From an uncultured delta proteobacterium (GTDB taxonomy: Bacteria; Myxococcota_A; Polyangia; Polyangiales; B10-G4), in contig CAVSGI010000005.1 of NCBI GenBank assembly GCA_963727445.1, positions 164,377 through 228,376 of the forward strand: a stretch of 64,000 bases of DNA, given 5' to 3'. The position numbers are program-made. Within the stretch, counting starts at the first letter, position 1, and the number at the start of each line of letters is the position of its first letter. This document shows positions 33,401-42,400 of the stretch, piece by piece.

Positions 33401-36400
33401 CGCCCGGTCGTCGGGCGCGTTCACGTACCGGCGCAGCGCCTGGAGCAGGCGCGCATCGGGCTGCTCGATCCAGCTCTGGTAGTGGGCGACCAAGCCGTGC
33501 TGCACGTCGACGAAGACCAACGCGTCCACGCCGCGCGTCATCGCCGGGGTGCACGCCCCGCGCGGGTCGGCGTCGATGTCGACCACGCCCTGGCGCGTGG
33601 TGCCGATGAGGACCTCGCTCGCGCGGATCCCCTTGCCGCGCAGGCGCTGCCCGATCGCGATCACCGCCGCCTCGTCTGCCTGCTCGAAGATGCTCATCCG
33701 CCGCATCGAGCAGGCGCGGGCCGCGGACGGCCCCCCCAAGAGGATGAGGGCGACGATGAGGCCGAGCAGCGCGGAGCGGAACATCCACACTTCCCCACGG
33801 ACTCAGCGCCCCTGCCCTCCTTTGGCTTTCGTTCGACCGAAGCGAATCCAAAACGATCTCGAACGATTGACATCCGCCGAGGCGAGACCTAGACAAAACC
33901 TCGTCACCCATGGAAGCCCGCTACCGCATCGGCATGGTCGCCAAGCTCTCGGACCTCACCACCCACACCATCCGGATGTGGGAGCGCCGCTATGGCGCGG
34001 TCGAGCCCCAGCGAAGCGAGGGCGGCGGCCGTCTCTATGGCGACGCCGAGGTGGAGCGGCTGCGCAAGCTCAAGCGGCTGGTCGATGGGGGGCACTCCAT
34101 CGGCCGCATCGCCGGCCTCCAAGACGGCGAGCTCGACGCGATGCTGGCCAAGCACGCGAGCGACCGCGAGGCTCCCGCCCTCGACGTCGACGCCGACGAA
34201 GCGGTGCGCCTCTTCCTCGACGCGCTCGCCTCCCTCGATCTCGATCGCGCCGGAGGCGTGCTCGGCCGCGTGGCCGAACAGCTCACCCCCCGACAGCTCA
34301 TCCGCGACGTCTTGCTCCCCCTCCAGCACGAGATCGGAAGGCGGTGGCACGTGGGCACACTCGAAGTCGCACACGAGCACGCGGCGACCCAGCTCGTCCG
34401 CACGACTCTCGGCGCGCTCTGGCCCGCGCCGCACGAGGCCGCCGCGCGGCGCGCCGTCGTCTGCACGCCCGCGGGCCAGCGACACGACCTCGGCGCGATG
34501 ATGGCCGGCGTCATCGCCTCGCTCCACGGCTACCGAGCCTTGAACCTCGGCGGCGACGTGCCCGTGGGCGACATCGTGATGGCGGTGCGCGACAGCGGCG
34601 CTGAGCTTCTGCTGCTCTCCATCACCGTCGATCACGACGCGTCGGTCGAGCAGCTCCAGACGCTCGCGCGCGACCTGCCGGAGGGCACGCGGGTCATCGT
34701 CGGCGGCAAGGGCGCGCCCCGCGGCGTGCGCGGCGTCGAGATCCTTCGTGACCTCGACGCGCTCGACGAAGCGCTGACGAGCTAGTCAGTTTCGCTGAGG
34801 CCGCGACTTGGGCGCGGGGTAGCGCTGCGTCTTCGGCGCGCGCTCCGCTTCCTTGAGCGCGGCGCGGATGGCGGCCTCGACCTCGTAGCCACGTTCGGCG
34901 TCGAGGACGAAGATGGTTACTTCGAGCGTGTCCTCCCCCTCGAGACGAAGCTCGGGCTCGCGGACGATAGAGGACCAGTGACTGAGGAGCGCGGCGCGAC
35001 GCACCACCGCCTTGACCGCGCCGACGTTCCGCCCGTCGGCCAGCGGGATACGGAAGATGTGGGGCGAGGCCTGGGCCTGCTCCGGCGTGCGCACCACCGA
35101 AGCGCGCGCGGCGACGGAGTAGGGGACGATCGCCTCGTTGCCGTCGTGGGTGACGACCACCATCGCCCGCCAGCCGAGCTTCTCGACGTGCCCCTCCACC
35201 TCGTCGATCTTCACGTAGTCACCTTCGCGGAAGGTGCGGCCCGCGCGCAGGAACACGCCGCTCACCGTGTCGCGGAGGATCCACCACGACAGGGCCACGA
35301 AGAGCGCGAGGACGGCCACGCCCGCGAACGGCGAGAGCCCGGGCGCGCGGCCCATGAGCACGTTCGCCGCGACCAGCATGTAGACCACGACGACGATCGC
35401 CGCGACGGCGGGCCAGAGGCGCTCGGTGAGCTCGGCGCGGGCGCGGCTCGCGGGCAGGACGCGGAGTGCCCAGCCGGCGAAGCGCAACACGACGAAGAGC
35501 ACGCCGGCCAGCAGCACCAGCGTGAGCACGTCGACCGCGGCGTTGTCGAAGAGGCCGATCACGACAGGAGCCCCCCGCGAACGAAGCGGTCGGTGATGGC
35601 GTGGTGCAGGAAGGGGTCGATCTCGACGATGCCTTCACGGCCCTCGATGACCAGCCCCGCGCGGCAGAGCGCGCCGAGGTCCCGCTCGATCTGCTCCGGC
35701 GCGAGCCCGGTCACCCGCGGCAGGGCCTTCTTCGAACGGCGCTTGTGGAGCACCAGCGATAGGAGCAGCGCCTTCCACTCCACCGCCAGCTCGTCGATCA
35801 CCTCCCAGTGCTCGGGCTCGGGCGCGCGGATCACGATGTTCTTGTCGTCGACCGAGTCAATCGAAGTGACCCAGGCGCGGAGCGCCGAGCCCACCGTGCC
35901 GCCCGCGTAGTCGAAGTGCTTCGAGAAGAGCCGCGCCAGCGCCCACTGCGACAGCTCGCCCTCGTCCTCCCCCTCGAGCTCGAAGCGCATGCCGGCCGTG
36001 CCGTGACGGAGCTCGACGATGGTCTTGAGCTCCTCGGCGCCCACCGGACCACAGTCGATGATGGCGATGGCCTTGTCGGCGAGCGGGCTCAGCTGATCGA
36101 TCAGACGAAAGGTCGTGGTGCCGATGCCCAACAGGAACAGCACGCGGTCGCCGTGGTCGACGATGGCGTTGTAGATGCGCTCAATCGCGCCGAGGCCCTC
36201 TTCGGTGCGCTCCCACCAGAGCTCGAGGTCGTCGAGGACCACCACCGACCCGTCAGGCAGCTCCGAGAGCACGGCGTCGATGTCGCCTTCGAGGCGCGTC
36301 GCCTCGCGGAAGGCGCGCTCGAGGGCGACCGGCGAGGCGCTCCCCGACATGGGCGGATGCACCCAGCAGGTCTTCTTGCCAGCGAGCACCTGCTGGGTGA

Positions 36401-39400: not shown

Positions 39401-42400
39401 TCCCTTCCCAGGCGTCGCCGGTCTCCAGGCGGAGCTGGCGGCGCGACAGGTAGAAGAAGAGCAGCCCCATCACCAGCATCGCCCCGGTCATGGCGAGGAG
39501 ATCGAGCTGGATCATCAACAGGAAGCAAGTGACTGCGCCGATGATGCTGACGAAGCGGGGGATCTTGAACGAAGGCCGGAAATCCGGGCTGACGAGGTCC
39601 TCGATGGCCGAGGTGAAGTTCAAGAACCCGTAGGTGGTCAAAAAGACCATCGACACGATGCGCGCGATCGCGTCGAGCTCGGCGATGAGGATCCCCGCCT
39701 CGCCGATGGCGCAGGCGAGGATCAGCGCGTTGCGGGGCTCGTTGCCTTTGCCGTGCCCTTTGGCGAAGACCTTGGGTGTGATCCCATCGACGGCGGTCGC
39801 CTGCAGGATGCGCGGCGCGCCGAGGATCGAGCCGAGCGCGCTCGACAGCGTCGCGCCCCAGATGCCGGCGACGACCAGGGCGGGGACGGCCGCAATCTCG
39901 AGGAGCGCATCGTAATCGCGTGTGAGGATCTCGGGCGGCACGGTGGCCGAGAGGAACCAGGCGAGGCCGGCATAGACGATGAACCCGGTGATGATCGACA
40001 GCATCGTGCCGATCGGGATCGCCCCCTTCGGATCACGTAAGTCGCCGCTCATGTTCACGCCGGCGGTGAAGCCGGTGACCGCCGGGAAGAAGATGCCGAA
40101 GACGACGGCCATGCTCGGCGCGTCGGCGAGGGGCTCGGTGTGGAGCGACTCGGCGGGGGTGGCGGGCGAGCCGAAGAAGATGCTGATCAGCGAAAGGCCG
40201 ATCGCCGCCAGGATGAAGTACTGCGTCTTGATCGCGAGGGCGGTGCTGATGAAGGTGATGACCATCAGCCCGACGAGCGTCGCCGTGCCGCAGATGCGGA
40301 TCGTCGTCGGCGTGGCCTCGACGCCGATGCGCCCGAGGAAGCTCTCCGAGAAGCCGATGATGTAGAGGCTGATGCTGAAGGACAGGCCGACGAAGAGGGC
40401 GAGGCCGAGGGTGCCGCCGATGGGCAGGCCGAGGCTGCGGCTGATGATGTAGTAGGGGCCGCCCGCGCCGACCTTCTTGTCGGTGGCGATCGAGCTGATC
40501 GACAGGCCCGTGGCCACCGAGACCACGTGCGCCACCACGATGATGCCGAGGGAGGCCCAGAGCCCGACCTGGCCCACCATCCACGGCAGGCGCAGGTACA
40601 TGATGACCCCGAGGATGGTCAGGACCGAGGGGGTGTAAACCCCGCCGAACATCCCGAACTTGGTGTCCTTTGCCATCCTCCCGAAGCGGCAAGGATCGCG
40701 AAAGCTCCGCGGGCCCGTCAACGAAGATCCGGAGTGCGAATACGGCAATCGCGGATAATTGCGCTAACTTTCCACGATGCGTCGCTCCTTGCTCTTTCTG
40801 ACGGCCTTCGTGCTGCTCGGAGCCACGCCTTGTGGAGGCGACGATCCGCCCGTGCAGGAGCCGACCGAGGTGGTCATGGGCTACGCCTCGGACCTCTTCT
40901 ACGACGTGCCCTTTCCGGACGAGGCGCATCGCAACCCGGATGGCTTCGTCAATCTCGAGACCTTCCCGAACCTGCGCCCGTCAGACTTCGTCACGCGCCT
41001 GCTCGCGGTGGCGCGCCGAACGCCAGGCTTCGGCGTCACCTCCCCCATCTACTTCCGCACGACGAACGCCCTCGACGCCGCGTCGGTGGAGGTCGAATAC
41101 CTCGAGAGCCGTGACGCATCGGCCCCCATCTTCTTGATGCGCGTGGACGATGGCTCGGCCGTGCGGCATCCGATCCAGGCGCGCTTTCGTGAGGACGGCG
41201 GGCCGTGGGGCGCGCCGAACCTCGTCTCGCTCCTGCCGCTTCAAGGGCGGCCCCTCGCCCCGAACGCGACCTACGCCGCGGTGATCACCGACGCGGTGGT
41301 GGACGCTTCGGGTGCGGCGCTCGAGGTGCCACCGAGCCTCACGTCCCTCCTCGCGGGCGAGATGCCCCAGGGCATGAGCGTCGACGCCTTCGCCGCGCAC
41401 CAGCAGGCCCTCGACGCGCTCGCCGCCGCCGGCGTCGATACCAGCGCGATCCGGGGGCTCGCGGTCTTCCGCACGGAGGACCCGGTGACGACCTTCGAAG
41501 AGGCGCGGGACATCGCGCTCGCCGAACCGCTCCCAGTGGTCACCGATCTGAGCCTGACCGACACCTTCGACGGCTTCTGCGTCTACTCGGGCATGACCCA
41601 GATGCCGGATTACCAGCGCGGCGTGCTTCCCTATGACGAGGGCGGGGCGTGGGACCTGACGCAGCCGCCGAACATGGCCGACGCGCGGGTGGTGATCACC
41701 GTGCCGCGGGTGGCACCCGCCGGCGCGCTGCCGACGGTGGTCATGAGCCGTACCGGCGGCGGCGGGGATCGTCCCCTCGTCGACCGTGGCCCCCGCGCCG
41801 AGCCCGGCGGTCCCGCCATCACTCCGGGCACTGGGCCCGGGAGCGAGTTCGCGGCGGTCGGCTGGGCCGGGGTGAGCATCGACGGCCCGCACGGCGGCCC
41901 GCGCAACCCGATGATGATGGACGAGCAGTTCCTGGTGTTCAACGTGAACAACCCGGAGGCGATGGTGGACAACATCCGCCAGTCCGCGCTCGAGCTCTCG
42001 CTCACCGCGCACGTGATGAACGAGCTCACGGTCGACGCGAGCGACTGTCCCGGCGTGGACGGTCCGGTGACCTTCGAAGCGCGCGCGCTCATGGGCCACT
42101 CGATGGGCGCGACGATCGCGCCGCTCGCGTTCTACGCCGAGCCGCTTTACGAAGCGTTGATCCTCAGCGGCTCCGGCGGCAGTTGGATCATGAACGTGGT
42201 GCACAAGGAGAGCCCGGTGGTGGTGCGGCCCTTCGCGGAAGCGCTTCTCGGGATCAGCGGGCGCTGGATGCTCCACGAGCACGATCCGATCCTCGGGATC
42301 CTCCAGTGGGCGGGCGAGGCCGCGGACCCGCCCGCGTACGCGGCGCGCATCGAGGGCGGGCGAAACGTCTTGATGATGCAAGGCATCGTCGACACCTACA

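Follow-up and report, generated by a model that had tools for sequence, protein, structure and literature searches.

P0001, a gene in a 64,000-nucleotide window of DNA from an uncultured delta proteobacterium (the whole stretch that was analysed), encodes a cation-chloride cotransporter (CCC) joined through a long helical arm to a P-loop NTPase, and it is followed by an MscS-like gene, P0002. The reading preferred here, to which we assign a probability of roughly 45%, is that an MscS-like tension sensor serves as the dock for an ATP-binding switch that tethers and regulates the ion transporter, with the two genes forming an ion and turgor control unit. The features are as follows.

35559..40676, minus strand: fused gene P0001 (1,705 aa), CCC transporter, helical arm, P-loop NTPase and winged helix
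39357..40676, minus strand: CCC/SLC12 membrane domain (aa 1-440), from ungapped local alignments to human NKCC1 and KCC4 and conservation in 140 relatives
38517..39356, minus strand: CCC cytoplasmic domain (aa about 441-720), from the KCC4 alignment (aa 186-651, E 1e-51)
36807..38459, minus strand: helical arm (aa about 740-1290, ~550 aa), long helices with two beta-hairpin inserts, from AlphaFold2
35817..36599, minus strand: AAA+/STAND-like nucleotide-binding domain and lid (aa about 1360-1620), from fold comparison
36417..36440, minus strand: Walker A GERHAGKT (aa 1413-1420), from sequence
36210..36245, minus strand: Walker B region VVVLDDLELWWE (aa 1478-1489), from sequence, its first Asp variable across the family
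35562..35804, minus strand: C-terminal winged helix (aa about 1625-1705), from secondary structure, with near-invariant H1644
34786..35562, minus strand: MscS-like partner P0002 (258 aa), GTG start overlapping the TGA of the fusion (GTGA), pore helix without the Gly/Ala signature

The presence of CCC, arm and NTPase in one protein is a genuine fusion within a single ORF. On the minus strand, the frame at 35559-40676 starts with an ATG at 40676 and contains no internal stops; upstream it stays open to a TTG at 40748. A preliminary description of this gene (there g00808) as a 1,705-aa fusion of an SLC12-type CCC, a helical region, an AAA+ domain and a winged helix is thereby confirmed by ORF and domain matches. 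Its 57 homologues of residues 750-1705 at E<=1e-60 were recovered in the same number (57 proteins, self counted; 59 at E<=1e-10, also with self), as were the 53 homologues of 1,500-1,780 aa carrying a CCC domain (53 of the 58 non-self matches by length, and 53/58 by domain). The fusion is stable across at least 140 full-length proteins. No sigma-70-like promoter was found for the fused-gene locus, terminator-like sites were near chance level (5 versus 2.7, sd 1.8), and an RNA holder look-up listed none.

By its intact ion-site residues, the N-terminal 720-aa region looks like an NKCC-like cation-chloride cotransporter, with transport predicted. The CCC part matches TIGR00930 (E 3e-108, although at 363 bits it falls short of the curated cut-off of 953 for this 936-position model) and PF00324 (E 1e-38), and the cytoplasmic domain matches PF03522 weakly (E 0.003). 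SLC12 is the nearest APC-type family, with 32 SLC12 chains at E<=3e-51 and other APC transporters at E>=1e-10. Similarity to human KCC4 (7d99, E 2e-75) reaches residue 651, inside the cytoplasmic domain, and no solved CCC chain matched P0001 beyond that point. The NKCC-like appearance follows from retention of the K+ site (Y105, P198, T201), the breaks in TM1 and TM6, the Cl- site (G202, Y349) and a Na+ site (A275, S278, S279) that corresponds to NKCC1 A610/S613/S614; other NKCC1 residues aligned to these sites are Y383, P496, T499 and Y686. Among 140 relatives, conservation is 133, 138 and 133 for Y105, P198 and T201 and 137 for each of G202 and Y349, and both of the consecutive Na+ site serines, in TM8, are Ser in 136. 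The ion-site definitions are those of PMC7200160, excerpts of which give the Na+ site serines of NKCC1 as Gly/Ala in KCCs. Genome G000 also carries two ordinary CCCs that have no arm/NTPase extension.

The arm, modelled mostly at pLDDT >90, is probably an internal duplication; its two halves align to each other (hhalign 89.6%, E 1.9e-6). No specific fold match to the arm emerged from a search whose model included the NTPase, the matches of which filled the lists. The sole arm row, Ist2 (Z 13.0, rmsd 8.3), was treated as generic helices and set aside as an arm fold.

The C-terminal part of P0001 contains the P-loop alpha/beta core and helical lid of the AAA+ superfamily. Its model (pLDDT 87) matches RuvB, ORC2, Cdc6/Orc1, archaeal Walker-type ATPases and Apaf-1 at E 1e-8 to 1e-7, much as described before for Cdc6/ORC, RuvB, archaeal ATPases and Apaf-1. 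The earlier statement that fold matches do not separate AAA+ clades also holds: clades are tied in a VIA search (Z 15.1 to 12), the best AAA+ matches being Cdc6 (Z 15.1, rmsd 5.3, 256 aligned) and NSF D2 (Z 14.7, rmsd 3.4, 215 aligned), and for placement with STAND or with Cdc6/Orc1, ranks 1-11 fall inside a band of about 1 Z unit, with clades mixed. Among solved structures, a sequence profile search gave P-loop-level matches only, and matches in the ESM Atlas were all hypothetical or ATP-binding clusters, less than one third of their members carrying AAA_16/AAA_22. The nucleotide-binding domain, helical domain and winged helix follow in series as in STAND NTPases, but this series is not diagnostic for STAND because Cdc6/Orc1 has it too. 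The GxP motif of the STAND NTPase helical domain reads GTV in P0001 (P in 3/58 and 37/144 relatives); the Pro is present in 13/24 antiporter and 11/19 stand-alone loci. Both the C-terminal sensor repeats and the N-terminal effector of STAND NTPases are absent, P0001 ending at the winged helix, in which H1644 is kept in 57/58, 143/144 and 72/75. Walker A is preceded in the P0001 family by FxVGRxxE, a motif shared with Cdc6/Orc1, archaeal ATPase and STAND kin.

Ties in fold with Avs, NLR and BrxC NTPases (Z 12-13.4), together with nSTAND Pfam matches that are weak and below cut-off, would suit a STAND-type anti-phage system in which the NTPase senses infection and opens a channel or transporter, collapsing ion gradients. 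Such a role is highly improbable, given that PADLOC had no match for window proteins, a plasmid search gave none, and the locus has a fixed place among housekeeping genes in related genomes (L175-L182), with Trk and antiporter neighbours and no sensor repeats.

Judged by alignment, the catalytic motifs of the NTPase are degenerate at the first Walker B Asp and the sensor-2 Arg. Walker A GK[TS], previously given as 31 of 31, is less than universal in larger sets (52/58 and 132/144; GERHAGKT of P0001 fits GxxxxGK[TS]), and the WW after Walker B, previously called invariant, is near-invariant (57/58 and 138/144). Invariance of DDLELWWE in 59/59 across loci L001-L075 was discounted as selection bias, the octamer being one of six retrieval patterns; other sets vary. 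Instead of hhhhDE, P0001 has VVVLDD. D1482, the first Asp, is D in 36/58 and 50/144 (D/H/N/E in 50/38/32/20 of the 144), and the second position is E in just 2/58 and 4/144, with D1483 kept in 132/144. R1557 occurs in 102/102 classed loci. At aa 1528-1545, taken as the arginine-finger region before strand 5 by motif and not by superposition, no Arg is invariant, the best being 1528 (R in 39/58 and 53/144; Q in P0001). The sensor-2 Arg (GxxR in the lid), its position likewise assigned by motif, is replaced by G1596 (46/58 and 141/144, with R in 0 and 1), and R is found there in 10/24 antiporter and 8/19 stand-alone loci. With both Walker B and sensor-2 degenerate, the earlier label of AAA+ ATPase stands for the AAA+/STAND-like fold and is doubtful in the motor sense. 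P0001 itself, with intact GKT and DD, might hydrolyse ATP.

This variability at the first Walker B position raises the alternative of a pseudo-ATPase, a purely structural adaptor that brings the MscS-like protein and the transporter together and is not switched by nucleotide. Stand-alone NTPases, mostly hhhhEN (60/78) and with GRT in 30/78, and antiporter fusions, in which Walker A decays (K in 17/24, T/S in a minority), point the same way. The chance of this appears slim, however, as GK[TS] persists in about 90% of the CCC clade, alongside the retained D1483 and R1557.

The MscS-like gene at 34786-35562 (minus strand), which overlaps the stop of the fusion, did not figure in the preliminary description. 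P0002 matches PF00924 (E 1e-11, 45 bits versus a cut-off of 20) and YnaI (E 6e-9); aa 9-188 align to MscS and YnaI, and the beta domain and three-helix membrane part are present. In its TM3a pore, L/L/V/L replaces Gly/Ala at E. coli positions 104/106/108/110, the numbering being anchored on a Gly that is invariant. No more than one small residue remains at these four positions in 51/78 CCC-clade partners, and Gly at position 108 occurs in 4/78 of them versus 15/16 in the stand-alone clade. By sequence, the CCC-linked MscS has lost the Gly/Ala pore signature, and bulky residues in a pore are no proof that it fails to conduct. In trees, 47 sampled partner MscS separate from 11 other MscS of G000 (99/95), and the stand-alone-clade partners branch next to ordinary MscS (94/96). 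The MscS cage is described as sensing crowding (PMC4003192, in excerpt) and as binding FtsZ (PMC4440785, in excerpt).

Comparison of loci and trees shows the P-loop/winged-helix domain and the downstream MscS-like gene as a fixed inherited pair, and the transporter on the arm as exchangeable (CCC, cation/proton antiporter or none). The NTPase occurs in CCC-fused, antiporter-fused (24 loci; P0140, PF00999 E 1e-20, with arm), stand-alone (about 1,000 aa, most of 82 matches) and armless forms, armless NTPase plus MscS at L177 and L178 being the minimal unit. The MscS-like gene lies 3ʹ of the NTPase in 121/129 testable de-duplicated loci, a count that leaves out duplicates, L079 (weak match) and L034, L061, L070, L072 and L074 (contig ends inside the gene); by form, this is 52/57 for CCC, 22/24 for antiporter, 19/19 for stand-alone and 28/29 for 5ʹ-truncated loci. 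The top HMM-found loci of the host's own phylum have CCC and MscS in 16/16. Five genomes have a CCC fusion without an adjacent MscS: in three a strong copy of the partner type lies at another site (E 3e-78, 6e-78, 8e-70), one has it beside a second NTPase copy, and in G305, a genome that may be incomplete, no partner-type MscS was found. The non-CCC loci without MscS are L121, L147 and L126, the last with a PF00520 ion channel in its place. TrkH/TrkA occur in the same gene runs at L183 and L185, and a separate antiporter lies downstream of MscS at L075 and L188.

Co-inheritance is also evident in phylogeny. The NTPase tree has two clades (SH-aLRT 99), the MscS tree reproduces this split with one change, and patristic distances correlate at r 0.86 over 119 pairs versus a permuted maximum of 0.10. 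Paralogues pair by type and not by genome (three in G000, two in L026). Examined over 72 pairs by APC-corrected MI, residues of NTPase and MscS showed no co-variation signal, their top z of 6.7 comparing with 6.2 in neighbour-swapped pairings and as much as 6.5 in permuted ones. Across 301 Bacteroidota-phylum genomes, the NTPase is present in 64 and partner-type MscS in 47, all 47 of which have the NTPase (by coordinates, 44 directly downstream, 2 directly upstream and 1 elsewhere), counts that are not independent because some 40 of these 47 genomes appear closely related (their scores are nearly identical, and neighbours are common to the eight fetched). The module spans 3,634 clusters at 50% identity (E<=1e-10), its range beyond two phyla being taken from record titles only.

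These distributions bear on the earlier proposal of nucleotide-gated CCC control. The conserved architecture behind it stands, and a regulatory role that depends on nucleotide is plausible. The NTPase is not confined to CCC fusions, however, being also antiporter-fused, stand-alone and armless, while the MscS-like gene stays with it; CCC control is therefore at most half the story. A strict version, in which the NTPase gates the CCC directly by ATP/ADP, in the manner of the RCK/KTN or USP domains of other transporters, and the MscS-like gene is a mere co-regulated neighbour, draws on the stable fusion, the kept Walker A and binding of ATP/ADP by human KCC1 in a USP-like pocket of its cytoplasmic domain (PMC8280820, in excerpt). 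We consider it improbable: the NTPase occurs without a transporter but hardly without the MscS-like gene, and the partner belongs to a dedicated MscS subfamily, retained even when relocated.

Coupling to a transporter is not the ancestral job, given that none is tethered to the stand-alone and armless forms. The NTPase might instead regulate the MscS-like channel, by gating, clustering or remodelling it, with the transporter only carried on the arm for co-location and co-expression of uptake and release. NTPase and MscS as the constant unit, armless and stand-alone forms included, accord with this, and the stand-alone clade, with its canonical pore and its position next to ordinary MscS, may on both grounds be ancestral. 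In the CCC clade, by contrast, loss of the pore signature leaves maybe little channel to gate, and the retention across phyla of fusions to two transporter families that are unrelated suggests that the transporter is a target; overall this alternative is unlikely.

Modelling weakly supports direct binding of the NTPase domain to the MscS-like oligomer, a result that fits channel regulation equally. Two MscS-like chains with the NTPase scored ipSAE 0.57 versus 0.01 for the best of three controls, with at least 76% of contacts agreeing between runs and partner pLDDT of at least 78. The score mark is reached by 116/157 solved pairs and 2/215 mismatched pairs, scores of 0.60 or under coming from 18/157 solved pairs and both mismatches, and this modelling job differs from what the tool was calibrated on. 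We know of no solved MscS-AAA+ complex.

In the preferred reading of a switch docked on a tension sensor, the NTPase domain would dock on the MscS-like oligomer, as the model hints, and the arm would tether the transporter to this assembly. The NTPase would bind ATP/ADP with slow or no hydrolysis, a switch rather than a motor because D1482 is variable and the sensor-2 position is Gly. The CCC-lineage MscS-like protein, after loss of its Gly/Ala pore, may be mainly a sensor of membrane tension or crowding and an anchor. By way of the arm and the cytoplasmic domain of the CCC, tension and nucleotide state would be signalled to the transporter, and Na+/K+/Cl- uptake would presumably be turned down at high turgor and up on cell shrinkage. 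More broadly, and somewhat doubtfully, this could be a widespread mechanosensory relay: a dedicated MscS subfamily would recruit an AAA+/STAND-like ATP switch, the pair controlling secondary ion transporters via an exchangeable arm, with CCC-lineage MscS as a non-conducting tension receptor in a kinase-free counterpart of volume-regulated NKCC control. If true, membrane tension would be linked to bacterial ion uptake by a direct physical path, MscS proteins would have a job other than that of a channel, and a tractable NKCC-like protein from bacteria would be at hand for learning how volume signals are passed on by the CCC cytoplasmic domain.

Each part comes from a known family, and the case for the system rests on genomics and one weak model. 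The open-licence literature yielded no description of an AAA+/STAND-like NTPase that pairs with a subfamily of MscS or is fused to CCC/antiporter carriers. The words 'ATPase', 'partner' and 'operon' are absent from the accessible portion of a 2026 review of bacterial MscS-like channels (PMC13591265), as is the NTPase-MscS-transporter system from that of a M. xanthus transporter survey (PMC3924187).

Animal CCCs are regulated by kinases. SLC12 CCCs (NKCC1, KCC1-4, NCC) and archaeal MaCCC align with P0001 in membrane domain, ion sites and cytoplasmic domain, but solved SLC12 chains lack its arm and NTPase, a stretch of 1,000 aa. Cdc6/Orc1, archaeal MJ/PH-type ATPases (2qen, 2fna) and STAND NTPases (Apaf-1, MalT, Avs) share its domain order (Z 12-15); unlike this kin, the P0001 NTPase sits at a transporter C-terminus, has no sensor repeats and a variable Walker B, and in its clade lacks the sensor-2 Arg. 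P0002 resembles the MscS family (E. coli MscS, YnaI) in its three membrane helices, beta domain and alpha-beta domain, but falls in a separate NTPase-tied subfamily whose CCC-clade members are without the small-residue pore helix. The RCK-KTN domains of KefC/TrkA are nucleotide-gated transporter regulators. Like P0001, TeaD (USP)/TeaABC places a cytoplasmic nucleotide-binding module on an osmoregulatory transporter (PMC8280820, in excerpt). What distinguishes P0001 from TeaD and RCK-KTN is its AAA+/STAND-like fold, its 550-aa spacer and its near-constant partner from a channel family.

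The fusion gene in the window is uninterrupted and is followed by a gene for an MscS-like channel protein, which begins inside the stop codon of the fusion (GTGA):

35559-40676, (-) strand: fused open reading frame, 1,705 aa, no internal stops
34786-35562, (-) strand: MscS-like gene, 258 aa

Among APC carriers, residues 1-440 are much closer to the SLC12 family (KCC4, E 2e-75) than to any other (best non-SLC12 match, E 2e-10), and the SLC12 similarity reaches residue 651, which lies in the cytoplasmic domain of cation-chloride cotransporters (CCCs). A query with residues 750-1705 recovers 58 other proteins, of which 53 are 1,500-1,780 aa long and 53 contain a CCC domain; because so many relatives are full-length and carry that domain, assembly artefact is ruled out, and the conserved family of long CCC-NTPase fusions proposed in the preliminary description stands. 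Seven fetched loci (L005, L006, L011, L018, L039, L071 and L149) carry CCC-NTPase genes broken by a frameshift or stop that could reflect either sequencing error or genuine decay. The AAA+/STAND-like fold proposed for the C-terminus is likewise borne out: the final 413 residues, as modelled (pLDDT 87), have structural matches in RuvB, ORC/Cdc6, archaeal Walker-type ATPases and Apaf-1, with the AAA+ clades tied by Z score. Neither Pfam, on the window protein, nor NCBIfam assigns a family above cut-off to the arm or the NTPase. In the model of residues 740-1705 (pLDDT 89, pTM 0.59), the arm is predicted to be built from long helices into which two beta-hairpins are inserted, and its two halves align with each other (89.6%).

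Alignment with human NKCC1 places the K+ site at Y105, P198 and T201 of the window protein, the Na+ site at A275, S278 and S279, and the Cl- site at Y349. Of 140 full-length relatives, 133 to 138 share these residues. By alignment, the window protein thus bears an NKCC signature, and it may import Na+, K+ and Cl-.

A direct nucleotide gate acting on the CCC alone, as was first suggested from the conserved fusion, is improbable; the NTPase also occurs outside CCC fusions, as stand-alone proteins of about 1,000 aa, fused to a cation/proton antiporter (e.g., P0140; PF00999, E 1e-20) and in armless form (L177, L178). "Stand-alone" here means no match to the CCC or antiporter profiles, which a divergent membrane domain can escape; in L185, the fused membrane domain matches neither Pfam nor the antiporter profile. 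The genome containing the window (G000) holds three module copies, one per main type and each with its own MscS-like gene, the other two being:

G000:C15 about 379595-383716, (+) strand: stand-alone arm-NTPase with canonical-pore MscS at about 382862-383716
G000:C15 about 455789-463202, (-) strand: antiporter, then antiporter-NTPase fusion and MscS-like gene

Of the neighbour families in the first 75 loci, only the MscS-like one recurs in different phyla (59 loci); no other true gene cluster reaches more than 9. Under a criterion of same strand and at most 2.5 kb, an MscS-like gene is present in 121 of 132 de-duplicated loci, absent in 8 and without room to be seen in 3; the MscS profile was built from the partners of L001-L075 and is independent for the other loci only. 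Out of the 150 listed matches (E 5e-53 to 4e-26), 40 loci were chosen by hand to give a wide spread, and 37 of them have the gene downstream. Five CCC fusions have no adjacent MscS; a strong partner lies elsewhere in three of these genomes and beside a second NTPase copy in one, and partner-type MscS was not found in the remaining one. At L126:1656-2366 (-), a PF00520 ion channel gene (E 2e-28) occupies the usual MscS-like position after the NTPase.

Other genes of the window surround this pair. A CarH-like MerR regulator with B12-binding domains (33910-34785, +) abuts the MscS-like gene from the other strand and is absent from the conserved neighbour clusters of the 75 loci. Past a fungalysin-type M36 peptidase with PA and PKD domains (27621-31271, +) lie a short tandem repeat, at about 31456-31620, and tRNA-Arg(CCT) (31695-31771, -). 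A tyrosine-catabolism run (42854-46798, +) comprises FAA hydrolase, GST/MaiA-like, HppD-like and homogentisate dioxygenase genes, the last apparently split into three overlapping ORFs (45641-46303, 46084-46455 and 46427-46798), probably by frameshifts or sequencing errors.

NTPase and MscS form an old unit. In the NTPase tree, a CCC clade of 78 rows stands apart from an antiporter plus stand-alone clade (41 rows; SH-aLRT 99), with stand-alone L068 and the long-branched L075 nested in the CCC clade, and the MscS tree built from these 119 loci repeats the split with one change. Distances in the two trees correlate with an r of 0.86 that kinship inflates (permuted maximum 0.10), and within a single genome paralogues match up by type. 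When 11 other MscS proteins are included (outgroups from G000 only), a branch with 99/95 support separates them from all 47 sampled partners. Across 301 Bacteroidota genomes, many of them close kin, the NTPase occurs in 64 and partner-type MscS in 47, all among those 64, and in none of the 237 genomes without the NTPase (E<=1e-22, a threshold set from genomes whose CCC fusion has no adjacent MscS). Ten of the 17 NTPase genomes under this threshold were fetched: in nine, the neighbouring gene is MscS-like with a weaker E, and in L189 a short three-helix ORF stands where it is expected. L058 (G606), labelled Hyphomicrobiales, groups by its proteins with Bacteroidales, in the same phylum sample as the Bacteroidales genome G304.

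Modelled together, the NTPase domain and a pair of MscS-like chains reach a score of 0.57 (best control 0.01), which the prediction tool grades as weak support; contacts agree to at least 76%, and partner pLDDT is at least 78. Of 157 solved pairs, 116 pass the score mark, as do 2 of 215 mismatched ones, counts that hold only roughly for this job; 18 of the 157 solved pairs and both mismatches pass at 0.60 or below. Because the genomic prior is high, and with this score added, the NTPase domain probably binds the MscS-like protein directly.

In the MscS-like partners, pore positions were anchored on an invariant Gly and numbered as in E. coli. Gly108 is present in 15 of 16 partners of the stand-alone clade and in 4 of 78 of the CCC clade; among the antiporter-linked and remaining partners the count is 10 of 25. 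Pore decay therefore tracks transporter fusion, which suggests that the partner may have changed from a valve to a sensor or anchor. L105, A106, L109 and G113 of the E. coli numbering appear in PMC9739000.

The preferred reading, tentative at about 45%, is that the NTPase and winged helix would attach to the MscS-like oligomer, that the transporter would be kept at this assembly by the arm, and that transporter activity would be set by membrane tension or crowding plus nucleotide state. That the channel is instead the target of the NTPase is unlikely, and a phage-defence module is very improbable. No publication describing a CCC/antiporter-NTPase-MscS system was found in the open-licence literature. 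Trk and antiporter neighbours in several lineages support ion homeostasis generally; they do not separate tension relay, channel targeting, CCC gating and scaffolding. In L183, L184 and L185, the antiporter-type NTPase fusion shares a run with genes for potassium uptake, TrkH and TrkA. Another antiporter-like gene, divergent from the first, is found directly upstream of the antiporter-NTPase fusion in L115, L117, L121, L123, L124, L128, L129, L131, L137, L142 and L184, which suggests a heterodimeric carrier.

An inert scaffold, in which the NTPase would have structural use alone, is distinctly improbable: Walker A GK[TS], described earlier as invariant, is kept in most CCC-clade relatives (52/58, 132/144), though not in all. 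The window protein retains GKT and DD and could still hydrolyse ATP. The first Walker B position among 144 relatives is D in 50, H in 38, N in 32 and E in 20, and most stand-alone NTPases read hhhhEN there (60/78). With sensor-2 and arginine-finger positions assigned by standard motifs, 141 of 144 have Gly at sensor 2, and CCC-clade relatives show no invariant arginine finger. According to PMC7583971, Walker B is needed for hydrolysis and dispensable for binding, and STAND enzymes largely lack sensor 2. Judged by these motifs, the NTPase would fit a nucleotide-binding switch better than a motor.
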